64,000 nucleotides of DNA from Alphaproteobacteria bacterium (GTDB taxonomy: Bacteria; Pseudomonadota; Alphaproteobacteria; Bin95), in the NCBI GenBank assembly GCA_965205265.1, contig CBDBGH010000003.1, forward strand, positions 3,936,001 to 4,000,000, read 5' to 3'. Shown in pieces: positions 17,431-57,247 of this stretch (position 1 is its first letter; every line of letters begins with the position of its first letter). The notes below the pieces were generated by a model that saw nothing but the letters and a program-made list of their open reading frames with translations, made no database searches and had not been told where the DNA came from. The position numbers and the translations under genes are program-made.

Positions 17431-17652
17431 CGTCATGCCCGGACTTGTTCCATTGCTGTCCGGTTTAGCCATTGGGCGAGGCTGAACGGGAGTCTGCCGG
17501 GGGTTTCGGGGGCGCGCGGCGTCCCCGGTCGGCCTCCTGTCCGTCATGCCCGAACGCCCCCCTTCGACAGGCTCAGGGCAGGCTCTTTCGTCATACCCGG
17601 ACTTGTTCCGGGCATGACGATATGGGGGCGGCCATGACGACTTGGGGACCGG
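17431..17652. repeat. Composite REP cluster
   Basis: REP half-site + ATTGCTGTCCGGTTTAGCCATTGGG module + CCTTCGACAGGCTCAGGGCAGGC module + REP. Close match to 32872-33030 and to the tail near 33255-33316. Confidence 0.85.
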
Positions 17653-18597: not shown

Positions 18598-19431
18598 TCA
18601 GTGGATGCCCTGCATTTCCGGGATGAATTCCGAGGCGCGCCAGAAGCGGTCGAGGCTGTCGGCATGGACCGCTTCGGCGGCCTCCCCGCCGCCCGGCCCG
18701 GGGCGCGGCTCCGGGTCGAAATGGCCCCAGCGGTCCCGGCCGCGCACCAGGGAAGCCGAGAGCCGGACGGGCGTTACATGGCGGACATGGGCCGGGATAT
18801 AGCTGATGCCGATGCCGATGCGCCGCCGGGTCGAGCGGTTGGGGCCGGAACTGTGCATGACCATGGTGTGATGGAAGGAGACCTCGCCCGGCGCGAACTC
18901 CAGAGGGACGGCGCTGTCCTCGTCCACGCCGCGCTCGACGGTCTGGCCGCGCGACAGCATGAGCGTCTCGTCGTCATGGTCGCGGTGCTGCACCTGGCCG
19001 TCGCGGTGGGAGCCCGGCAGGAAGCGCAGGCACCCCATCTCCCTGGTCGATTCGGTCAGCGCCACCCAGGCGGTCACCTGTTCCAGCGGTTCGAGGCCGA
19101 AATAGGTCCCGTCCTGGTGCCAGGGCACGAAGGACCCGCTGCCGCCTTCCTTGATCCAGACGGTCGTGTGGAACACCAGGATGTCGGGGCCGATGAGGGC
19201 CTCCACCATGTCCAGCAACCCCGGATGGCGCACAAGCTCCGCCGCCCAGGGAAACAGCAGGTAAGGCTTGGTCCTGCTCGCCGCCTGGCGCCGGGAGGGT
19301 TTCCGTCCCGCCTCCACGCAGGACCGTTCGCAGGCCTCGCGGTAGCGGTCCGTTTCAGGAGCCGTCAGCAGGGGCCTCGGACGGATGAAGCCATTGTCGC
19401 GGTAATGGTCGAGGTCGCCCGGGGTCATCAT
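18598..19431 (-). CDS. Phytanoyl-CoA dioxygenase (PhyH) family protein
   Basis: VPWHQDGTYFG, TAWVAL, GCLRFLPGSH, HSSGPNRS...R. Confidence 0.92.
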   Translation of the reverse strand: MMTPGDLDHYRDNGFIRPRPLLTAPETDRYREACERSCVEAGRKPSRRQAASRTKPYLLFPWAAELVRHPGLLDMVEALIGPDILVFHTTVWIKEGGSGSFVPWHQDGTYFGLEPLEQVTAWVALTESTREMGCLRFLPGSHRDGQVQHRDHDDETLMLSRGQTVERGVDEDSAVPLEFAPGEVSFHHTMVMHSSGPNRSTRRRIGIGISYIPAHVRHVTPVRLSASLVRGRDRWGHFDPEPRPGPGGGEAAEAVHADSLDRFWRASEFIPEMQGIH

Positions 19432-19502
19432 GGCTGCAGCCTCTCCCTCATCCGGATGCCCTTCCCGGCGCAGCGGACGACGGGGTCGCGCAGGCGGCGC
19501 TC
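19428..19502 (-). repeat. Decayed duplicate of the last 75 bp of pdxH
   Basis: Ungapped alignment to 20185-20259, 55/75 identical by manual count. Still reads ...RERLQP*. Confidence 0.85.
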
Positions 19503-19506
19503 CCTG

Positions 19507-19761
19507 TCAGGCCGCCGCGACGCCTGTTTCGCGCCGGGTCCGGTCGCCGCGCCCGGCCAACAGGCCCGAGACCGAAATGTCCTCGTCGAGCGCTTCCCAA
19601 TGAATGCCGCCGGCGGTGAGTTCATACTGTTGCAGGGCGTCGGCCGGCGCGCCGCAAAGCCGGGGAAACCAGGCGAGCGGCACGCCGAGCACCCGGCCGT
19701 CGGAGAGCGACACCCACATGGAGTCCCCGTCGAAGGACACGCGTTCAGCCGAAATGGTCAT
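19507..19761 (-). CDS. DUF2442-family antitoxin
   Basis: LSDGRVLGVPLAWFPRL...GIHWEALDEDISV. Confidence 0.9.
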   Translation of the reverse strand: MTISAERVSFDGDSMWVSLSDGRVLGVPLAWFPRLCGAPADALQQYELTAGGIHWEALDEDISVSGLLAGRGDRTRRETGVAAA

Positions 19762-19987
19762 TCCATGCCTTCCGGATCGATCCCGCCCTGTCTGACGCCA
19801 AGCCGGTCAGGACCCGCAACTCGCGCGCATTGAAACCGCGACTTTCCACCACACGAACCGTCGGTTCAAGCATAATCTTCGCGGAGGAGGACCCTTTCCG
19901 CACATGGACATGCACAGGCTCCCGCGGCGAGCCTTCATTGGAGTAAAAGAAGAACTTATTCCCGTCTATACGAAATACAGTCGGCGC
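19745..19987 (-). pseudogene. DUF4160-family toxin lacking a start codon
   Basis: Manual translation (A)PTVFRIDGNKFFFYSNEGSPREPVHVHVRKG...AWNDHFG*. The first codon is GCG, with an in-frame TAA two codons upstream. Confidence 0.8.
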
Positions 19988-20184: not shown

Positions 20185-20808
20185 TCACGGTTGCAGCCTC
20201 TCCCTCGTCCACGCCCCCCCTTCGGCGCGGCACACGATTCGGTCGTGCAGGCGGTGCTCTCCCCGCCGCCAGAACTCGATGCGCGAGGGCCGGAGCCGGA
20301 AGCCGCCCCAGAAGACCGGCCGCGGGATGTCGGCCCCGCCGAACCGCGCCTCCATCTCCGCAACGCGCGCCTCGAGCGCCGGCCGGTCCGCCACAGGCTC
20401 CGACTGGCGGGACGCCCAGGCGCCGATCCGGCTGCCGCGCTCACGGCTTTCGAAATAGGCGTCGGAGACCGCGTCCTCGACGCGCGCAACCCGTCCCTCC
20501 ACCCGCAATTGGCGGTCCAGAACGCGCCAGTGGAAGGTCAGCGCCGCCAGCGGCCGGGCGGCAAGCTCGCGGCCCTTGCGGCTTTCGTAGTTGGTGTAGA
20601 AGACCAGCCCTTGCGCCTCGACCGCCTTCACCAGCACGATGCGGCAGGACGGCATGCCGTCCGCGCCCACCGTGGCGAGCGCGGCGGCGTTGGCGTCCAC
20701 CGGCTCGCAGGCTTCGGCTTCCTCGATCCAGCGCCGGACGGCGCGCACCGGGTCGCGCCCGATTTCATCCTCTTCCGCGTCCAGGGCAATCGCTTTTGGA
20801 TTTGTCAT
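20185..20808 (-). CDS. pdxH: Pyridoxamine 5'-phosphate oxidase
   Basis: FYTNYESRKG, RQLRVEG, SRIGAWASRQS, WGGFR, RLHDR, RLQP. Confidence 0.95.
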   Translation of the reverse strand: MTNPKAIALDAEEDEIGRDPVRAVRRWIEEAEACEPVDANAAALATVGADGMPSCRIVLVKAVEAQGLVFYTNYESRKGRELAARPLAALTFHWRVLDRQLRVEGRVARVEDAVSDAYFESRERGSRIGAWASRQSEPVADRPALEARVAEMEARFGGADIPRPVFWGGFRLRPSRIEFWRRGEHRLHDRIVCRAEGGAWTRERLQP

Positions 20809-20821
20809 GCGTGAACACCCC

Positions 20822-20955
20822 CGTCATGCCCGAACGCCCCCTTCGACAAGCTCAGGGCAGGCTCCTCCGTCATACCCGGACTTGATCCGGGTATCTCTCT
20901 CCACCGCTTCCGCCGAACGGCCGCATGGATACCCGGAACAAGTCCGGGTATGACG
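20822..20955. repeat. Composite REP cluster
   Basis: CCTTCGACAAGCTCAGGGCAGGC module followed by an inverted CGTCATACCCGGACTTG(A)TCCGGGTATC pair. Confidence 0.85.
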
Positions 20956-28838: not shown

Positions 28839-31800
28839 ATGGCGGGCAGGACGAGCAGACGCAGACGGGACATCAACACCTGGCCGGGCTTCGTGGACGC
28901 GCTGGCGAGCCTGCTGATGGTCGTCGTCTTCCTGGTCATGGTCTTCGTTCTGGCGCAGTTCTTCCTGAACGAGGCGCTCTCCGGGCGCGACGAGGCGCTG
29001 TCACGGCTGAACCGCGAGCTTGCCGAGCTCGCCGAGATGCTGGCGCTCGAGCAGACGACCAGCGCCGGCCTGCGCAACGACCTCGAGGCGCTGACGGCGG
29101 AGCTGCGCATCGTCACCGAGGCGCGCGACGACTATGCGGGCCGGCTGGAGACGATGACGGCCGAAGCCGAGCAGGCCGCCGGCACCGTCCTGCTGCTGCG
29201 CGAAGACTTCGCGCGGCTGACGGACAGCGCGGCCGCCGACCGGGACAGGCTGCAGGTCCAGGAAAGCGAAATCGAGCGCCTGGAGCGCAACCTGATTGCG
29301 CTCCAGCGCAGCCGGGATGCGCTGGAGGCGGCGCTTTCCGACTCGCGCCAGCAGAAGAGCGACGCCGACAAGGCGCTCGAAGAAGCACGCCGCCTGCTCG
29401 CCGCCAATCTCGAACGGCTCGCCGCGCGCGAGCGGGAGGCCGACGCCCTCAGCGCCCGGATCGAGGCGGTGCAGCAGGAATCCGCCAGCCGCGCCGAGGA
29501 GGTCGCGCGCCTCGACGCCGCGCTGCTGGCGAGCCGGGAGGAGACCGCCGCGCAGGCGGAGAAGCTGGCGGAGCTCAACCGGATGATGCGCGGCCTCCTG
29601 GCGGCGCGCGCGGCGCTGGAGGAAGACCTGGCCGCGCTCAGGACCGAGGGCGATGCGCAGGCTGCCGAGGCGGAACGGCTCAGGGCCGCGCTGGGCGAGG
29701 CCCGCCGCGCGCTCGCCCAGGCGAATGACGAGGCGGCGCGGCTGAAAACGGCGCTGGCGGAGAAGACGGAGACGGCGGCCGCCGACATCGCCGCGCTGGA
29801 GAAGGCGCTGGCGGCGGCGGAAATCGAAATCGGCCGCCTCACTGGCCGGCTGGCGGACTCCGAAGCGGGAGAGGCCGCAGGCCGGGAGGAAATCGCCCGG
29901 CTTGAGGCGGCGCGCGCCGAAGAGGCCGATGCGGCGAAATCCGACATCGCCGGGCTGGAGCGCGCGCTGGCGGCGGCGGAAGCGGAAATCGACCGCCTCG
30001 CTAGACAGCTGAAGGAGACCGAGGCGGGCCGGCTTGCCGAGGCGGATGCCGCGCGCGCGGAGATGGCGGCGGCCGAGGACAAAATCGCGCGCCTTTCCCG
30101 GCAATTGGCGGAAACCGAAGCCGACCGGAACGCCGGGCGGGAAGAGATTGCGCAACTGGAAACGGCGCGCGCCGGAGAGGCCCGGGCGGCGCAGGCGCGG
30201 ATCGCGGCTCTGGAACGGGCGCTGGCCGGCGCGCAGGACGAGATCGGGCGGCTGGCGGCGCGCCTTGCCGATATCGAGGGCCGGCGGCTCGCGGCACGGG
30301 ACGAAATCGCCCGGCTGGAGACCGCGCGGGCCGGAGAGGCGGAGGCGGCGCGCGCCCGGATTGCGAGCCTGGAACAGGCGCTGGCCGGAGCGCTGGCGAA
30401 AATCGACCGCCTTGGCGCGGCGCTCGCCGAAACCGAGGGCCGGCGGCTCGCGGCGCGGGACGAAATCGGCAGGCTGGAAGCCGCCCGGACCGCGGAGGCG
30501 GAGACCGCGCGCTCGGACATCGCGGCGCTGGAACGGACGCTGGAGGAGGAACGGAAGAACGCGGCCTCCCTTTCGGCCCGCCTCGCCGATACGGAAAGCC
30601 GGCGGGCCGCCGCCGTGGACGAAATCGCCAGGCTCAGGCAGGCGCTCGATGAGACTTCGGAAACGGCGGCATCGTTGCGACAGTCGCTGGCCGAAGCGAG
30701 GTCGGAAGCGGCGTCCCTCTCCGCGCAGCTCGGCGACACGGAGACCCGGCGCGCCGCAGGCGAGGACGAAATCGCCAGGCTCAGGCAGGCGCTGGAGGTG
30801 GAAACCGGGACGGCAGCCTCGCTGGAGCGGTCGCTCGCCGAAGCGAGGACGGAGGCCTCCTCTCTCTCCGCCCGGCTCGGCGACACGGAAACCCGCAGAG
30901 TTGCGGCGGAAGAAGAGATCGTCCGGCTCAGGCAGGCGCTTGAAGAGAAGTCGGAAGCGGCGGCGGTGCTGGAACGGGCGCTTGCGGCGGCCGAGGCAAG
31001 GGCGGAGGGCCTTGCCGGGCGCCTTGCCGAAGCGGAGGCCGGGCTGGCCGCCGGCGAACGGGAGATCGCAGGCCTGAAGCGGACGCGCGCCGAGGAGGCG
31101 GAAACCGCCCGCAGCAGTATCGCCGATCTGGAAGGCGCACTGGCGGCCGCGAAGGAGGAGATCGACTCCCTAGCAAGCCGGCTTGTCGATATGGAGATCG
31201 CCCGCCTTGCCCGGCAGCAGCGGATCGAGGCGCTGGCCGAAGCGCTTGCCGAGGCCGAGGCGAAGGCCGTCGCGCTTGCCGAAAGCCTGGAGAAAGCCGA
31301 GGCGGACCGGGCGGCCGGGCGGGAAGAAATCAGGCGGCTGGAGTCGGATACCGCCCGGTTCGAGGAAACGGCGAACCGGCAGCTTGCAGCGCTGCAGAAG
31401 GCGCTCGCGGAAGCGAGGGCGGAGGCCGCCGCCCGCGCCCGGCTGCTTGAAAGCGCCGAAGCCGAACGCGATGCGCAGGCGGCCGAAGCCGTGAGGCTCC
31501 GGGAAGCGCTGGCGGCGGCGGAAGGGAATGCGGCGTCGCTTGCGGAGCGGCTGGCGGCCGCGGAACGCGAGCGGGACGCGCAGCGCAATGAAGCCGCCCG
31601 GCTGGAGGCGGCGCTTGCCGAAGCGACCGCGAAACGGGAGGCGGACCAACGTGTCGGGGAAGGCAGGCTGGAGGACGCGCTCGCCAACGCCGCGCGGCTC
31701 CGCCAGCAGCTCGACCTCGTGCGCAAGCGCCTCGCCGAAGCGCGCGAGGAACTGCAATTGCGGCGCGGCGTTGCGCAGGGCGGCGAGTTTGGCGCGCCCC

Positions 31801-32871: not shown

Positions 32872-33316
32872 CGTCATGCCCGGACTTGTTCCATTGCTGT
32901 CCGGTTCAGCCATTGGGTGAGGCTGAACGGGGGTCCGCCGGGGGTTTCGGGGGCGCGCGGCGTCTGCGATCCGCCCCTTGCCCGTGAGGCTCGAACGCCC
33001 CCCTTCGGCAGGCTCAGGGCAGGCTCTTTCGTCATGCCCGGACTTGTTCCACGGCTGTCCGGTTTAGCCATCGGGGGGAGCCGAACGGGGTGTCGGGAGC
33101 GCACCGCGTCTGCGATCCGCCCCTTGCCCGTGAGGCCCCAACGCCCTCCTTCGACAAGCTCAGGACAGGCTTCTCCGTCATACCCGGACTTGTTCCGGGT
33201 ATCCACACGGCCGCCCGGCTGAGCCGCTTGAGAGAGATACCCGGAACAAGTCCGGGTATGACGATATGGGGCGGGTATGACGATGTGAGGGTCGGGCATG
33301 ACGACTTGGGGACCGG
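32872..33316. repeat. Largest composite REP array: two tandem ~150-bp units plus an inverted REP pair
   Basis: Units start near 32872 and 33030 with CGTCATGCCCGGACTTGTTCCA..GCTGTCCGGTT.AGCCAT and both contain CGTCTGCGATCCGCCCCTTGCCCGTGAGGC. REP pair at 33176-33263. Confidence 0.88.
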
Positions 33317-51468: not shown

Positions 51469-53541
51469 ATGGACGGAAGCCCGACCATCCATTTCAGCGC
51501 CTGCCCGCACGATTGCCCTTCGACCTGCGCGCTCGAGGTCGAACGCTTCGACGCGCACAGCATCGGCCGCGTCCGGGGCGCCCGCGAAAACGACTACACC
51601 GCCGGCGTGGTCTGCGCAAAGGTCGCGCGCTACGCCGAGCGCATCCACCACCCGGACCGCCTGCTCCATCCGATGGTCCGCACCGGCCCCAAGGGCTCGG
51701 GCAGGTTCGAGCGAATTTCCTGGGACAAGGCGCTCGACCTCTGCGCCGAGAAGTTCCTGGAGGCCGAGGCGAAGCACGGGCCGGAGACCGTCTGGCCCTA
51801 TTATTACGCCGGCACGATGGGCCTGGTGCAGCGCGACGGCATCAACCGCCTCCGCCACGCCAAGCGTTATTCCGGCTTCCACGCCACCATCTGCACCACG
51901 CTCGCCTGGAACGGCTTCATCGCCGGCACCGGCAGGCTCGCCGGCTCCGACCCGCGCGAGATGGCGAAGGCCGACCTGCTCGTGATCTGGGGCACCAACG
52001 CCGCCGCCACCCAGGTGAACGTGATGACGCACGCGGTCCGCGCCCGCAAGGAAAGGGGGGCGCGCATCGTCGTCATCGACGTCTATCGCAACGAGACGGC
52101 GAAGCAGGCCGACCGCTTCCTCTGCGTGCGGCCCGGCACGGACGGCGCGCTCGCCTGCGCGGTCATGCATGTGCTGTTCCGCGACGGCCATGCCGACCGG
52201 GAATACATGGAGGCGATGACCGACGCGCCGGCGGAACTGGAAGCGCATCTGGCGAGCCGCACGCCCGAATGGGCGGAGGCGATCTGCGGCGTGCCGGCCG
52301 CCGAGATCGAGGCGCTGGCCGGCGAAATCGGGCAGACGAAACGCACCTATCTGCGCCTCGGCTACGGCTTTTCGCGCCAGCGCAACGGCGCGGTCAACAT
52401 GCACGCCGCCTCCTGCATCGCGGCGGTGACCGGGGCCTGGAAATACGAGGGCGGCGGCGCCTTCCACAATAACGGCGCGATCTACGGCTGGGACAAGTCG
52501 CTGATCGAGGGGCTGGACATGCGCGACCCGACCGTGCGCCTGCTCGACCAGACGCGCATCGGCCCGGTGCTGACCGGCAATCCCGCCGACCTCCAGGGCG
52601 GCCCGCCGGTGACGGCGATGCTGATCCAGAACACCAACCCGATGATGGTGGCGCCCGAGCACCTGCTCGTGCGCGCCGGCTTCGAGCGCGAGGACCTGTT
52701 TGCCTGCGTGCATGAGCAGTTCATGACCGCGACGGCCGGGATGGCCGACCTGGTGCTGCCGGCCACCATGTTCCTCGAGCATGACGACATCTACCAGGGC
52801 GGCGGGCACAGCTATGTCATCGCCGGGCCGAAGATCGTCGAGCCGCCGGGCGAATGCCGGTCCAACCACGAGGTGACGGCGGCGCTCGCAAAGCGGCTCG
52901 GGGTCGATCATCCGGGCTATGCGATGACCGCCGCCGAGGTGGCCGACGCCACGCTCCGCCGCTCCGGCTATCCGGGCTTCGAGGAGTTGAAGTCCGAACG
53001 CTGGACGGACGCCCAGCCGGACTTCCGCGCGGCGCATTACCTGGACGGCTTCGCCTGGCCGGACGGCAGGTTCCGCTTCAAGCCGGACTGGGGGGCCTTC
53101 GCGCCGCGCGCCCACAATATCGCCGCCGGCATGCCCGGCCTGCCGGACCACTGGGACGCCATCGAGAACGCGACCGAGGACAAGCCGTTCCGCATGGCGA
53201 CCTCGCCGGCGCGCGGCTATCTCAACTCCTCCTTCACCGAGACGCCGACCTCGCAGCAGCGCGAGGGGCGGCCGACGGTGATGATCCATCCCGAGGACGC
53301 CCGGGAGCTCGGCATATCGGACGGCGGGCGCACGCGGGTCGGCAACGACAAGGCGTCGGTCGTCGTCCGCGCCCGGCATTTCGACGGGGTGAGGCGGGGC
53401 GTCGTCGTGGTGGAGAGCATCTGGCCGCATGAGGCGTTCGAGGAGGGGCTCGGCATCAACGCGCTCACCTCCGCCGATGCGGCCCCGCCCGTCGGCGGCG
53501 GCGTGTTCCACGACACGGCGGTCTGGGTGCGCGCCGCCTGA
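51469..53541 (+). CDS. Molybdopterin oxidoreductase family protein
   Basis: CPHDCPSTC...C Fe-S motif, [16 protein letters not shown]. Confidence 0.92.
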
Positions 53542-54641
53542 TGGCCGTTGCGCTCGAAGCGGTCGCGGCCGCGACCGAAGGGCGCTTGCACGGCGACGGA
53601 GGGTTTGCGGTCGAGCGCCTGGTGCATCCCGTCGAGGCGCGCGGGGCCGGCGACCTCATCTTCCTGATGGAGGCGCGCCATGCCGCCATGCTGGCGGAGT
53701 TGCCCGTTCGCGCCGCCGTGCTGCCGCAGGGGTCGGAGCCGCCCGGGGGCGCGCTCGACGCCTGGGTCGAGGTGGAGGCGCCGCGCTATGCGCTGGCCGG
53801 GCTGGTGGCGCTGTTCGAGCCGGGCCCGCATGCGCCGCCGGGGGTGCATCCGACAGCGGATGTCGCCGGGGACGCCGTGCTGGGCGCGGGCGTCTCGCTC
53901 GGGCCGTTCGTCTCGATAGGGCCGGGGGCGGAGATCGGCGCGGGCGCGCGCATCCTTTCGCATGCGTCCATCGGGGCAGGGGCGCGCCTCGGGCCCGACT
54001 GCCTGGTCCATGCCGGCGCGCGTGTCGGCGAAGGCGCGGTGCTGGGCGCGCGGGTGATCCTGCAGGCCGGCGCGGTCATCGGCGCGGACGGTTTCAGCTA
54101 TGTGACGCACGGGCCGGCCTCCTTCGAGGTGGCGCGGCGTTCCGGGGACTATCACGGCGTCGTAAACGAGCGCGTCCGGCGCATCGGCTCGCTCGGCCGG
54201 GTCGAGCTCGGCGATGATGTCGAGGTCGGCGCCAACAGCTGCATAGACCGCTCCAATATCGGGGCGACCCGCATCGGCGCGCGCACCAAGATCGACAATC
54301 TCTGCCAGATCGGCCACAACATCGTCATCGGCGAAGACTGCCTGATTTCCGGCAAGACCGGCATCGCCGGCAGCACGCGGATCGGCGACCGGGTGGTGCT
54401 GGGGGGCGCGGCCATGCTCGCCGACCATATCGAGATCGGCGACGACGCCGTGGTCGGCGGCGCCGCGGCCGTCTGGAAGTCCGTGCCGCCCGGCCAGGTC
54501 TGGGTCGGCTATCCGGCCAGGCCCAAATCCGTTTATCTGGCGGCCCAGGCGCATCTGGCGCGCATGGGCCGCGTCGCCACCCAGCTCCGCCGCCTCGCCG
54601 CTCGCGTGCTCACCCTCGAAGGCGGCTCCGGCCGGGGCTGA
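53541..54641 (+). CDS. lpxD: UDP-3-O-(3-hydroxyacyl)glucosamine N-acyltransferase
   Basis: Hexapeptide repeats, [27 protein letters not shown]. Confidence 0.92.
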
Positions 54642-54878
54642 GAGCGCGGACAGGCGGGGACGTTCGTTTTTGCGGATCGCAGGCCACAGGACCGCCGGCA
54701 GCCTCCCGAAATGCGGCAGGAAGCTCTTGCAGAATGGCTGTTACGATTGCACATAATCGGTACACTGCCCGCTCTCGAGGCGCGTCGCCGAAACCGCGGC
54801 GCGGGAGGAGCGTTGTATGGGACCGTGCAACAGGCCGCCGGCGTCGAAGCCGGGCCTGTCCGGAAGGTATGATCGCCG

Positions 54879-55262
54879 ATGAACGCCGCCCGACATCCCG
54901 AACGGGCGGATAGCTTGCGCGAGCTCGGCGGGGTTGTCGCAGAAGCGCAAGAGGAAGGCTTCCCTCGACCGTCCGAAGAGGCCGTGAAGAATGCGCGCCG
55001 GCTCCTTCGGGCGATGCACAGGATATCGCCGCAGCGTTTCGAGGTTTATCCCACGCCGGACGGAGAGGTTGCGATAGATGCGCCGGGCGGAGCGGGACGG
55101 TCTGTCATTCTGCTGTGCGCTTCGGACGGCGGAGCGCTTTGCCTTGTGAACATGGGCGGCGCGCATCGGCGCGCCCGCTATTCGGACACGACACGGCTGC
55201 CGGACGGGTTCGTCCGGGAGGCGCTGGAGGAATTGGCGCAGCGTGACAAGCGCGCCGCGTGA
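54879..55262 (+). CDS. Hypothetical protein, candidate antitoxin
   Basis: 127 aa, PSEEAVKNARRLL...VYPTPDGEVAI. GTGA-coupled to the next gene. Confidence 0.6.
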   Translation: MNAARHPERADSLRELGGVVAEAQEEGFPRPSEEAVKNARRLLRAMHRISPQRFEVYPTPDGEVAIDAPGGAGRSVILLCASDGGALCLVNMGGAHRRARYSDTTRLPDGFVREALEELAQRDKRAA

Positions 55263-55669
55263 CGGCACCGGACGGGATTGCGCCGGGAGAAAATCTCGGC
55301 AGAGGCGTGTTCTCGCGCAGCCAGGCGCGGCGGGCCGAGCGGGGCCGCGTCCTCCTCAATGCGTTTCTGGAAGCGGAAGGCGAGGCTGAAATCTCGGTCG
55401 ATCGTCTCGACATGGCGCCACCGATGGAAGCGAAGGAGATTGGCGACAGGGTAGCCGCTGGACGGGGCAAGCAATTCTATGGCTGGGCCGTTGTCGTCCT
55501 TGAGGTTGCAGCCGCCAACCAAAGGCAGGCGCTCGCTTCTCCGCAGTTGGACAATCCCTACCACGCGGACATCGTCCTGCCGGATGCTGCGGTCGAGGAC
55601 CGGGACGAGCAGAAACGCCATGCGCAGGAACTCGCGGACGCATCGGCATGGCGCGGTCGGGACGATTGA
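55259..55669 (+). CDS. Hypothetical protein, candidate ADP-ribosyltransferase-like toxin
   Basis: LGRGVF...AF...ISVDR...GWA...SP..DNPYHADI; the R/S/H spacing resembles ART/RES-like folds (inferred). Confidence 0.55.
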   Translation: MTAPDGIAPGENLGRGVFSRSQARRAERGRVLLNAFLEAEGEAEISVDRLDMAPPMEAKEIGDRVAAGRGKQFYGWAVVVLEVAAANQRQALASPQLDNPYHADIVLPDAAVEDRDEQKRHAQELADASAWRGRDD

Positions 55670-55670
55670 A

Positions 55671-55722
55671 CGCAACCCGGCTCCGCCGCCTCGCCGCCCG
55701 CGTCCTCACCCTCGAAGGCGGC
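55671..55722 (+). repeat. Duplicate of the lpxD 3' region
   Basis: 48/52 identical, ungapped, to 54575-54626 (peptide AT[Q/R][14 protein letters not shown]). Confidence 0.92.
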
Positions 55723-55726
55723 CCAT

Positions 55727-55975
55727 TCAGACTCCGCCGACCACCAGCGGATAGTCGAGACGATTCCCGATCGGGACCGCGCCCGTCTCATCGAGGCCCG
55801 GTTGTCCCTGCCGTTCGGACCGGGCTTCCAGAAGTTTCCGGGCGACATCGCGAGCGATTTCCAGCGTCTCGGTCACCGTTCGCCCCTGTGCGACGAGACC
55901 GGGTACCTCCTCAGAGGTCGCCAGCCAGACGCCTTCCGGCTGCCTCTCGATATGCAGCTTTACAATTCGCTCCAT
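55727..55975 (-). CDS. HicB-like/DUF1902 antitoxin, orphan
   Basis: PEGVWLATSEEVPGLVAQGRTVTETLEIARDVA. Confidence 0.85.
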   Translation of the reverse strand: MERIVKLHIERQPEGVWLATSEEVPGLVAQGRTVTETLEIARDVARKLLEARSERQGQPGLDETGAVPIGNRLDYPLVVGGV

Positions 55976-56017
55976 CCGCGACCTCGGCGCAACATAGCTC
56001 CCTCGGGCACCCGGACG

Positions 56018-57247
56018 TCAAGCACGCTCGATGTTGCCGCTGCGGAGCGGAATCCCGAACTCGCGGTGGCAGATTTCGGCGAGCTTCCCCACGCCGTCGC
56101 GGATTTCCTCCACGGTCGGGTTGCCGAAGCAGAGCCGGATGCGCGAGCGGGCGGGCGCGGCGTCGGCGGACCATTCCGGGCCCGGATTGATGGCGATGCC
56201 GGCGGCGGCCGAGGCGGCGGCCAGTTTCATCGCGTCCACCGCCTCCGGAAAGGAAATCCACAGGAAGATGCCGCCCGCCGGCGGCACGAACTCCGCGGCC
56301 GTGCCGAAATGCTCCTCCAGCGCCCCGGTCATGGCGTCGAGCTTCTCCTTGAGCAGCCCCGTCACGCGCTCGACATGGGCGTCGAAGCGGGTCCGGCAGT
56401 ATTCCGCCAGCATCAGCTGTTCGAGCGCGCCGGTGCCGCCGTCGGTCTTGCAGGCGACCATGCGGGCGATGAGGGCGGGTTCGGCCACGATGTATCCGAC
56501 GCGCAGCGCCGGCGCGACGGTCTTCGAGAACGACCCGCAATGGATGACCCGGTTGCCCTCGTCCATCGCCGCGATGGCGGGCGGGCGCTCGCCGGTCCAA
56601 AGCAGGTCGGCATAGCATTCGTCCTCGAAGACGGGCACGCCGTATGCCGCCGAGAGGCGCAGCAGCTCGGCCCGCCTGGCTTCCGGCATGATGCTGCCGC
56701 CGGGGTTCTGGATCGTCGGGATGACATAGATGAATTTCGGCTTCACGCCTTGCGCGGCGAGCGCGGCCAGCTTTTCGCCGAGCAGGTCCATGCGCATGCC
56801 GCCGCCGTCCAGCGGAATGCCCACCGGCCTGGCGCCGAGCTTGCGCAGGCGGGCGAGCGCGCTGCCGTAGCTGAACTGCTCGACCAGGACCGTGTCGCCG
56901 GGGCGAAGGAAGAGCTCGTTGACGAGGTCCAGCCCCTGGTTCGAGCCCGAGGTGATGAGGACATTGTCGGGCGAGACCGAGAGGCCGCTGCGTTTGCGGA
57001 GCTTGGCGGCCACGAATTCCCGCAGCGGCCGGTAGCCGAGCGGCCCGCTGTCCAGCCCGTAGGTCGCCAGCGTCGTTCCCTCCCGGCGGAGCGCCGAGGC
57101 GGTTGCGGCGATCATGTCCTCGACCGGCATGCTCGCCGCATCGACATTGCCGCCGATGAAATTATAGGGCGCGAACCCGTTCCAGCGCGGGGCCGGCGGC
57201 GGCAGGCCGGGCGCGAGCAGGGCGTCGTAATCGATGGCGGCGGGCAA
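56018..57247 (-). CDS. PLP-dependent aminotransferase class I/II (MocR-like catalytic domain)
   Basis: ITSGSNQGL, PTIQNP, EDECY, GSFSKTVAPALRVG. TTG start with AGGAG RBS. Confidence 0.9.
   Translation of the reverse strand: MPAAIDYDALLAPGLPPPAPRWNGFAPYNFIGGNVDAASMPVEDMIAATASALRREGTTLATYGLDSGPLGYRPLREFVAAKLRKRSGLSVSPDNVLITSGSNQGLDLVNELFLRPGDTVLVEQFSYGSALARLRKLGARPVGIPLDGGGMRMDLLGEKLAALAAQGVKPKFIYVIPTIQNPGGSIMPEARRAELLRLSAAYGVPVFEDECYADLLWTGERPPAIAAMDEGNRVIHCGSFSKTVAPALRVGYIVAEPALIARMVACKTDGGTGALEQLMLAEYCRTRFDAHVERVTGLLKEKLDAMTGALEEHFGTAAEFVPPAGGIFLWISFPEAVDAMKLAAASAAAGIAINPGPEWSADAAPARSRIRLCFGNPTVEEIRDGVGKLAEICHREFGIPLRSGNIERA

Follow-up and report, generated by a model that had tools for sequence, protein, structure and literature searches.

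How chromosomal toxin–antitoxin (TA) and defence cassettes move when they encode no recombinase themselves is a long-standing question. Insertion with long target duplication was reportedly first described by Nobusato and co-workers in 2000 for the restriction-modification genes of Helicobacter pylori, and to our knowledge no mechanism has been established for it since then. Here we describe a cassette of two coupled open reading frames (ORFs), ORF1 and ORF2, which lies directly downstream of the gene lpxD in an alphaproteobacterial genome, between two copies of the 3′ end of that gene. It is located in the window, by which we mean the whole stretch of 64,000 nucleotides (nt) that was analysed, corresponding to positions 3936001–4000000 of contig C3 of a genome (G000) with 5,699,834 bases in three contigs. 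The lpxD feature is a known insertion type with a different class of cargo, and it comes with sequence evidence on the mechanism; the work also reveals a new conserved TA-like family.

Integrative islands that target tRNA or protein genes at the 3′ end bring along a substitute for the end they displace. The restriction-modification units compiled by Furuta, Abe and Kobayashi are among the described systems closest to the lpxD insert; they lack a mobility gene and occur in many phyla between repeats of 46–423 bp that are unique in their genome, some of them overlapping a host gene at its 3′ end (Furuta et al. 2010; PMC2853133). The Kobayashi group proposes a life cycle in which the unit is amplified and released via its repeats (PMC2853133). 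The units were recognised by repeats longer than 30 bp, a single copy of the repeat in an empty relative, an insert of less than 20 kb without a mobility gene, and a repeat that is not dispersed. The lpxD insert has every one of these structural properties; its cargo is not a restriction enzyme with a methyltransferase. The Helicobacter precedent invoked in an earlier note on this DNA, which had been made from the sequence alone, is real and extends to many phyla (PMC2853133). Long and variable direct repeats are also known from two insertion sequences (IS), IS1549 and IS1634, which make repeats of 8–514 bp for which no model has been put forward (PMC2266710).

The genome studied here makes the mechanism testable because it offers many independent cases, close relatives with empty sites and samples in which both alleles occur. 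A homologous crossover can be told from a staggered cut by the order in which native-like and foreign-like sites follow one another in the repeat, and genomes from long-read metagenomes have become numerous enough for this simple sequence test to be used widely.

The lpxD insertion, its empty alleles and its cargo

The locus comprises the following features, in window coordinates.

53541–54641, + strand: lpxD (UDP-3-O-acylglucosamine N-acyltransferase), intact
54575–54626, + strand: repeat copy 1, within lpxD, ending 15 nt short of the stop codon
54642–54878, + strand: spacer of 237 nt, the first part of the inserted DNA
54879–55262, + strand: ORF1, 127 amino acids, putative antitoxin or partner, recognised as an ORF and as part of a conserved pair
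55259–55669, + strand: ORF2, 136 amino acids, putative toxin, its start overlapping the ORF1 stop in GTGA
55671–55722, + strand: repeat copy 2, the relic of the lpxD 3′ end, without the last 15 nt and the stop codon
55724–55726, − strand: leftover start codon of the deleted toxin gene hicA
55727–55975, − strand: hicB-like antitoxin gene (DUF1902; PF08972, E = 2e-5), its toxin partner lost

The identity of lpxD follows from its reading frame, from its profile scores (NF002060, 297 bits with a cut-off of 207; TIGR01853, 268 bits with a cut-off of 242.5) and from its orthologues in the genus, to which it is 82–94% identical across the gene. The duplication is exactly as the earlier note had claimed, with 52 nt of the lpxD 3′ end repeated at 48/52 identical positions and a start-to-start distance of 1096. 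A BLAST comparison of the 1.5 kb upstream of ORF1 with the 1.5 kb downstream of ORF2 retrieves it as a direct match (E = 5e-16), whereas in inverted orientation the best match of these flanks is just 12 nt. Across the whole genome the 52-mer has two full-length copies, followed by a next best match of 27 nt. Chance similarity or a dispersed repeat was rejected on the grounds of these two copies, and the repeats found in metagenome-assembled genomes (MAGs, see below) are likewise two-copy.

The 1044 nt between the repeat copies hold the last 15 nt and stop codon of lpxD, the 237-nt spacer, which the earlier note had put at ~240 bp, and the two coupled ORFs, with spacer, ORF1 and ORF2 together accounting for about 1.03 kb. 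The ORF2 stop codon occupies 55667–55669 and a single base (55670) precedes the relic, which confirms that the second copy begins 1 bp after the last stop of the cassette; microhomology at this ORF2/relic junction amounts to at most 1 nt. No recombinase or integrase domain was found between the repeats in Pfam and NCBIfam scans and no inverted repeats at the ends of the insert, in line with the claim that integrase, transposase and terminal inverted repeats are all missing. A restriction or methylase domain was equally absent from the cargo (Pfam, NCBIfam, PADLOC), and a consensus scan of 54560–55800 returned no sigma-70-like promoter, so that a promoter suspected by eye in the spacer was dropped. 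The last 15 nt and the TGA of lpxD are identical in the closest relative (G014), implying that the new DNA begins directly after the lpxD stop codon and not within the gene.

An assembly artefact was considered and rejected. Contigs of run X18, which stems from another study, are letter-identical over 54871–55589 and 55614–56400 and bridge ORF2, the relic and hicB, so that the structure is confirmed in independent assemblies.

A search of 16 other species of the genus with the lpxD region yielded a full-length lpxD match in 15 of them (82–94%); in the remaining one (G002) the match is partial and lies at a contig end. None of the 16 genomes carries DNA like the spacer or ORF1. A weak match of 62 nt to the ORF1/ORF2 junction (77%, E = 3e-4) is situated on a different contig of G014. 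What follows lpxD in the relatives is given here.

G014 (the closest, 94% over lpxD) and G016: 25–30 nt, then a convergent hicA of 75 amino acids (PF07927) and the hicB-like gene (DUF1902)
G009 and G012: 1.5–2.0 kb of other DNA separating lpxD from hicA
G011: hicA shortened to 24 codons
G005 and G007: an aminotransferase gene directly after lpxD

Thirteen loci could be oriented, and the lpxD end is present once in 12/12 relatives and twice in G000 only. Empty-site alleles, which bear directly on the insertion postulated earlier, thus exist at lpxD in G014, G016, G005 and G007 and, at the second locus described below, in six genomes of the genus. Homology between G000 and G014 is continuous through the TGA of lpxD, ends there and restarts at the hicA start codon, from which 253 nt through hicB are 98% identical. 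Just six codons and a stop are left of hicA in G000, whereas four relatives (G014, G016, G009 and G012) keep the whole gene of 75 amino acids. The relic is joined to the hicA start codon within an imperfect 8-nt microhomology. Judging from these alignments, the insert replaces a short intergenic stretch together with the body of hicA, and the hicB of G000 is an orphan antitoxin gene. The idea of an insertion with a duplicated lpxD end stands as far as the repeat is concerned, but not for the right end, which has no clean duplication boundary and is fused to the start codon of the deleted hicA. Since the interval between lpxD and hicB contains 1.5–2.5 kb of other DNA in G009, G011 and G012, the region downstream of lpxD can be described, by comparison within the genus, as a variable spot.

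The insertion is also found outside the reference assembly. Most of the runs that hold sequence of the window are labelled sponge metagenome, and two sponge-metagenome runs contain contigs of both a diverged cassette allele and the hicA-type allele, which implies that the lpxD site is polymorphic in nature. In run X2 the diverged strain has a 9-nt deletion at 55688, in the relic of the cassette allele.

The cargo belongs to a widespread family. At E ≤ 1e-3, ORF1 has 511 homologues and ORF2 has 367, with a typical identity of 55–75%; they contain no Pfam domain, and where their sources name them the name is merely ‘hypothetical’. One ORF2 homologue (P0002), 93% identical, is situated on a contig of 211 kb. 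ORF1 and ORF2 themselves have no match in Pfam or NCBIfam. PADLOC returns nothing for ORF2 and for ORF1 only a weak PDC-M32A match (E = 0.016, 12 bits), which is not a mobility gene, and in the Protein Atlas ORF2 falls into clusters labelled ‘hypothetical’ only. The two genes travel as a pair, as ORF1 lies directly upstream of an ORF2 homologue at 32/32 loci from species-representative genomes and 11/11 metagenome-contig loci. Going by record titles, the carriers are Alpha- and Gammaproteobacteria, Nitrospirales, Chloroflexota, Latescibacterota, Acidobacteriota, Spirochaetia and Gemmatimonadota-like MAGs; the family is highly conserved (55–75% protein identity) across at least eight phyla, mostly of sponge- and coral-associated bacteria. 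In the taxonomic family of the source organism, a close copy is present in just one of 37 genomes, G000, and a paralogue of 40% identity at another place in two, a distribution that implies horizontal arrival of the cassette. Variants of the arrangement include three ORF1–ORF2 pairs in tandem in a Dehalococcoidia MAG (L056:1576–4390) and an ORF1–ORF2–ORF1 order at another locus (L039), and some ORF1 homologues reach ~220 amino acids through a conserved N-terminal extension of ~95 amino acids or a doubled domain.

Structure prediction gives a first indication of function. The AlphaFold 2 models have a predicted local distance difference test score (pLDDT) of 91.7 for ORF2 and 91.8 for ORF1. Foldseek returned nothing at E ≤ 0.001 for ORF2, nor against the PDB for ORF1, in which no known antitoxin fold was detected. 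A wide VIA-align search of 48,161 representative chains placed Tse2 first for ORF2 (Z 7.0, root-mean-square deviation (rmsd) 3.2, 108 aligned residues) and KptA second (Z 6.9, rmsd 3.9, 94 aligned), in a method for which a best Z of 7–8 is typical even without a true relative and in which the ORF2 matches reach only Z 3–7. Further matches comprise Tpt1, Rhs toxins with an ADP-ribosyltransferase (ART) fold, Tne2, scabin, diphtheria toxin, DarT, ParT, MbcT and RES. About 40 of the 50 structural matches listed are, going in part by their titles, presumably ART-fold or nicotinamide adenine dinucleotide-using toxins. Invariant residues of ORF2 include R15, S46, D48, R49, N99 and D104, with H102 nearly invariant. 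The model of the ORF1–ORF2 complex attains a score of 0.89 against 0.17 for the best control, with at least 93% contact agreement across runs and a partner pLDDT of 90; the same score was attained by 116/157 solved complexes and by 2/215 mismatched pairs. On this modest fold match ORF2 looks like a small ART-fold toxin, and the models suggest that the pair is probably a TA module, with ORF2 as its putative ART-fold toxin. The description of the cargo as TA-like in the earlier note therefore holds in silico, given the fold search and the complex model.

Recurrence and polarity of duplicated gene ends

A second case is located within the same 64 kb, at pdxH, where the earlier note had seen the same layout.

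20185–20808, − strand: pdxH, intact (PF01243, PF10590)
19507–19963, − strand: cargo, consisting of a DUF4160 gene at 19745–19963 (PF13711, E = 8e-15) and a DUF2442 gene at 19507–19761 (PF10387, E = 2e-21)
19416–19502, − strand: relic of the pdxH 3′ end, 87 nt, fused to the start of phyH
18598–19431, − strand: phyH, its start fused to the pdxH relic

The likeness is real: pdxH is followed by an AT-richer spacer, the DUF4160 gene, the DUF2442 gene, 2–4 nt and the 87-nt relic. The duplicated target of ~115 nt straddles a gene boundary and contains ~90 nt of pdxH and ~25 nt of phyH. Six genomes of the genus have this pdxH/phyH segment in single copy, with an overlap (ATGA) between the pdxH stop codon and the start of phyH, five have a pdxH cassette with the same junction and two have other inserts.

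The phenomenon extends beyond the window. We compared the genome with itself in sections of 14 kb and scanned the ORFs of 38 regions around repeat pairs. There are 59 direct-repeat pairs not attributable to IS (35–320 nt, at least 76% identical, 300–3300 nt apart), and a random 790-nt segment of the genome has a chance of about 0.8% of being enclosed by one of these pairs. Besides lpxD and pdxH, these are the clear cases.

Enoyl-CoA hydratase gene, 3′ end: 221 nt duplicated, cargo Phd/YefM and PIN (VapC)
Hexapeptide-transferase gene, 3′ end (L134): 173 nt, cargo a nucleotidyltransferase (MNT) and a weak HepT-like ORF
GNAT gene, 3′ end: 102 nt, cargo a LysE transporter
Glycosyltransferase gene, 3′ end: 54 nt, cargo one small membrane-type ORF
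MNT gene, 5′ end (L120): 65 nt, cargo a second DUF4160/DUF2442 pair
pheT, 3′ end (L127, C3:2885800–2887900): 273 nt, 94.5% identical, cargo an acyltransferase

A toxin–antitoxin pair is the cargo in five of the eight clear cases genome-wide, lpxD and pdxH included, which bears out the expectation that such repeats recur around TA loci. A 41-nt repeat around an AbiEii/AbiEi pair is a doubtful case, and the remaining regions fetched contain tandem paralogues, IS elements or unclear arrangements. At pheT the relic, which G014 seemingly has in common with G000, borders on a conserved segment. In all other genomes of the genus in which both are present, this segment is located far from pheT; by this comparison the pheT case may reflect the breakpoint of a rearrangement, with duplication, and not an insertion. 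The general phenomenon is almost certainly real and recurrent in this genome.

For the ORF1/ORF2 family in other genomes, 41 loci were examined (32 from genomes, 8 from metagenomes and the lpxD locus) after three metagenome duplicates had been dropped. In three of them the flanks match each other strongly in direct orientation (77, 108 and 140 bits, compared to 35.6 bits for the next best), and the best inverted match over all 41 reaches 30.1 bits. An examination of 33 loci revealed neither a conserved sequence at the cassette ends nor attC-like sites or inverted repeats. The two repeat-flanked cases outside G000 belong to a Spirochaetia MAG (L062) and a gammaproteobacterial MAG (L051), and each repeat occurs at two places only in its genome. 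At L062 an intact BNR-type gene of 658 amino acids contributes one copy with its 3′ end, and the other is a degenerate relic of ~475 nt; relatives have the empty arrangement. The L051 repeat belongs to a methyltransferase 3′ fragment, of which 11 kb of a defence island contain at least four partial copies, and its reading as a single insertion event was set aside because the partial copies are too complex to assign. The island itself (G053 C52:12000–30000) contains GmrSD, a NERD-helicase and an IrrE-like peptidase, and the cassette copy there has lost the N-terminal half of ORF2.

The two copies of a duplicated gene end hold a record of how they arose. If the end was duplicated in place, the copies start out identical, after which the relic decays randomly and the intact copy is conserved. 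If a homologous crossover formed it, the intact copy should change from native to foreign sequence at the point of exchange, and the relic from foreign to native. The most informative locus in this respect is L134, whose 173 nt are single-copy in the closest relative G014 and in most other genomes of the genus. The copies of L134 differ at 17 sites, which read 5′ to 3′ as IIIIIIIIIIIRRRRRI, where I denotes that the intact copy equals G014 and R that the relic does (Fisher p = 0.001). Agreement with G014 thus lies with the intact copy for 11 sites (positions 5–49), passes to the relic for the next five (72–145) and returns to the intact copy at the last (154). The relic together with the next 60 nt downstream matches G014 (59/60), and at its cargo-side junction 61/69 aligned bases match G010, a more distant species with the same cargo at the same hexapeptide-transferase gene.

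The BNR-type gene of the Spirochaetia MAG behaves in the same way. Scored against the consensus of five relatives, the 50 columns before the stop codon contain 14 mismatches in the intact copy and five in the relic, and the other 440 columns contain 32 in the intact copy and 98 in the relic; in this alignment the polarity is that of L134. The four differences of the lpxD repeat read I I R R against G014, three of the four being synonymous in the lpxD frame, a polarity that is consistent with a crossover, if weakly so at four sites only. In each case both switches fall in one short interval, as a single reciprocal crossover would automatically produce, and such a crossover would imply that the molecule was a circle or a linear piece whose cut lay in the homology. 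Taken together, the complementary mosaics at L134 and in the Spirochaetia MAG point to homologous recombination, the incoming DNA having brought a copy of the gene tip with it, rather than to a staggered cut.

Long direct duplications of another origin are abundant in the genome. An element of 1914 bp with perfect terminal inverted repeats of 16 bp lies between direct duplications of 35–578 bp at 44 sites according to a k-mer scan and at 40 according to BLAST. Its transposase belongs to the IS1634 family (NF033559, 341 bits with a cut-off of 100), to which the genome has 66 matches and of which it contains about 58 copies; the family is found in 9/17 genomes of the genus. The duplications are 97–100% identical, with one pair at 74%. 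One copy touches the window.

Position 1440: end of an IS1634-family copy, with a 112-nt duplication at 1442–1553 and, by arithmetic, just upstream of the window

Four further pairs of direct repeats (C3:689886, 2221673, 3851381 and 4216584; 94–376 nt, 99–100% identical) are spaced 4707–4729 nt apart; at least two of them enclose partial matches to an IS1634-type transposase and they may represent a longer or composite derivative.

Other repeats came to light alongside these. The k-mer scan shows arrays of ~36-nt repeats resembling clustered regularly interspaced short palindromic repeats (CRISPR), with a period of ~66 (or ~72), at C3:3788371–3790112, 5123375–5123873, 5446938–5449943 and 3410319–3412250. 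A 572-nt tandem duplication (99.8%) inside an adenosine deaminase gene (C3:20554–21702) is either real or an assembly error. Within the window, a dispersed 58-nt family resembling repetitive extragenic palindromes, 88–91% identical and with a hairpin-like interior, occupies 17558–17615, 20837–20894, 32999–33056 and 33145–33202, and the internally repetitive region 29600–31650, with units of 147, 159 and 255 nt at 60–75%, looks like a gene for a coiled-coil repeat protein.

Routes of entry into the lpxD site

We put the probability that the lpxD cassette entered by a homologous, Campbell-type crossover at about one half; the route is carried over to lpxD by analogy with the mosaics at the two other loci. 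The incoming DNA would have consisted of a self-contained cassette of ~1.03 kb and a copy of the last ~67 nt of lpxD. One RecA-type, Campbell-like crossover within this short homology would insert the whole molecule directly downstream of lpxD, and the product would be an intact lpxD composed of the native body and the incoming tip, followed by the cassette and then by a relic composed of the incoming start and the native tip. A later deletion at the microhomology would have removed the last 15 nt and stop codon of the relic, the 25-nt intergenic stretch and nearly all of hicA, thereby orphaning hicB. The cassette would need no recombinase of its own, and repeats on either side would in principle allow it to loop out again and to integrate in any relative that shares this conserved gene end. 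What we infer beyond this is a circular intermediate, a vehicle between cells and an origin for the first repeat-flanked unit.

A number of findings weigh against this crossover. At lpxD itself there are four informative sites only, and G014, at 94%, is an imperfect stand-in for the allele before insertion. The differences listed for the X2 contigs include no change at 54602 and 54608, and the ‘incoming’ bases may thus also occur in strains without the cassette. No cassette was found at lpxD in other genomes of the genus, and hence no donor is known. Contigs of four runs contain no circle or excision junction, although contigs cannot show rare forms; a joint between 54641 and 55708 in run X1, considered as a candidate excision, was rejected since it equals the hicA-type allele. 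In the wider family, 38 of the 41 cassette loci lack a flanking repeat. The mosaic test does not carry over to several other cases either. At pdxH the two informative sites in the tip are explained by selection on the phyH start codon, and the event at the enoyl-CoA hydratase gene is old, being present in five species, with C-terminal tails that vary naturally. The apparent presence of the pheT relic in G014 makes that case ambiguous, and at the GNAT gene with LysE the relic tip matches neither type of allele. Moreover, a crossover in 20–70 nt of homology is inefficient, and the model covers the spread of a unit but not the formation of the first one that carried a gene tip.

The chief alternative is a de novo insertion with a true long target duplication, in which a staggered break was filled around a captured fragment or a microhomology-mediated template switch returned 52–67 nt upstream. 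We regard it as distinctly less probable. Some event resembling a target duplication must have made the first unit, and the duplication at pdxH is one contiguous target of ~115 nt across the pdxH/phyH boundary, as in target duplication. Repeat lengths also differ between loci (41–273 nt), and a 5′ end is duplicated as well, at the MNT gene of L120, which is expected if selection keeps those duplications that leave genes whole. Under this alternative both copies descend from the same native sequence and differ by later mutations only, and at lpxD both changes in the copy under selection are indeed synonymous. The complementary mosaics at L134, with 11 I followed by five R, and in G054 are, however, unexpected after duplication in situ and decay. 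The junction between cargo and gene fragment at L134 is common to two species while the closest relative is empty, and the microhomology of no more than 1 nt at the ORF2/relic junction likewise argues against it. The suggestion in the earlier note that the insertion was either catalysed in trans or driven by break repair is for its part not supported, as the complementary native and foreign mosaics indicate homologous recombination.

Catalysis in trans could be attributed to the IS1634-family transposase, or the cargo duplications could be due to the same host process that lies behind the IS duplications, possibly by capture at a long-stagger cut. The lengths of the cargo duplications fall within the range of those of the IS1634 family, and the family is multicopy in precisely the three well-assembled genomes that have repeat-flanked cassettes (G000, G054 with 12 matches and G055 with 17 matches), compared to 1/5 well-assembled cassette genomes without repeats and 1/14 control genomes. 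This link is suggestive, and we treat it as a minority reading. By our own calculation the co-occurrence of 3/3 versus 1/5 has a one-sided p of about 0.07, which is not significant, and the family is missing from G053 and G014, both of them fragmented assemblies. The 16-bp terminal repeat of the IS shows no similarity to the insert ends at lpxD or pdxH, the mosaics at L134 and in the Spirochaetia MAG point to homologous recombination, and the same insertion signature surrounds restriction-modification genes in many species (PMC2853133). We consider an involvement of the IS1634 family improbable. Even harder to reconcile with the data is the notion that the repeats are the attL and attR of an integrase-driven islet at the lpxD 3′ end, from which the integrase and most of the element were deleted later. 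Integrative elements, which typically bring a new 3′ end for the target gene and generate direct repeats some tens of bases long, would create the same complementary-mosaic geometry, and the lpxD–hicB region, with its 1.5–2.5 kb of other DNA in three relatives, is variable. Against this stand the lack of an integrase domain in the lpxD insert, the small size of the latter (1.04 kb), its end 1 nt past a stop codon, the at least seven different host genes targeted with repeats unlike in sequence and length, and the lack of a conserved sequence at the cassette ends across 33 loci. We consider such an islet highly unlikely.

A more far-reaching version of the crossover would make conserved gene 3′ tips the portable homology arms of addiction cassettes and of some single genes, which would enter by RecA crossover and loop out via the repeat. 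In its boldest form the first unit would arise from long-stagger cleavage by the IS1634 family. This scheme is speculative and probably wrong as a whole. If true, it would describe a mobile element that needs no recombinase and can attach at any conserved gene tip, and the boldest form would also explain the long target duplications of the IS1634 family.

Comparison with known systems

Set beside the published insertions with long target duplication, the cases described here have much in common with them: direct repeats of more than 30 bp that are unique in the genome, a small insert without a mobility gene, a single copy at the empty site, a variable repeat length (46–423 bp published, 41–273 nt here) and a cargo of the addiction type. 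They differ in that the cargo mostly consists of pairs resembling type II or type IV TA systems (the ART-fold pair, DUF4160/DUF2442, Phd/VapC, MNT/HepT-like) and in some instances of a single gene (LysE, the acyltransferase), and in their host, a GC-rich alphaproteobacterium with sequence that is met again in sponge-metagenome runs. Evidence from complementary mosaics for a homologous crossover is available here and is not known to form part of the published account of restriction-modification units. A layout in which TA cassettes are accompanied by target duplication or flanking repeats was not found among open-access titles and the beginnings of abstracts, which is not proof that it is unpublished.

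IS1634 and IS1549 share the long and variable direct duplications. In contrast to these IS, the cassette has neither a transposase gene nor terminal inverted repeats, and the lpxD repeats are 92% identical compared to 97–100% (one pair 74%) for the IS repeats. Integrative islands resemble the crossover product in its order, namely a native gene body with an incoming tip, the cargo, and the displaced native tip as a relic. They are set apart by their integrase and fixed core site, both of which are missing here, where general homology is apparently used and many unrelated genes serve as targets. With regard to the cargo itself, ORF1 and ORF2 resemble the type II TA modules with ART-fold toxins (DarT–DarG, ParT–ParS, MbcT–MbcA and Xre–RES) in being two small coupled genes, of which the upstream product is predicted to bind the downstream one, and the nearest structural neighbours of ORF2 have the ART fold. 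They differ in that ORF1 and ORF2 match none of these modules at the level of sequence families, the structural matches are confined to Z 3–7, and ORF1 is without a known antitoxin fold.

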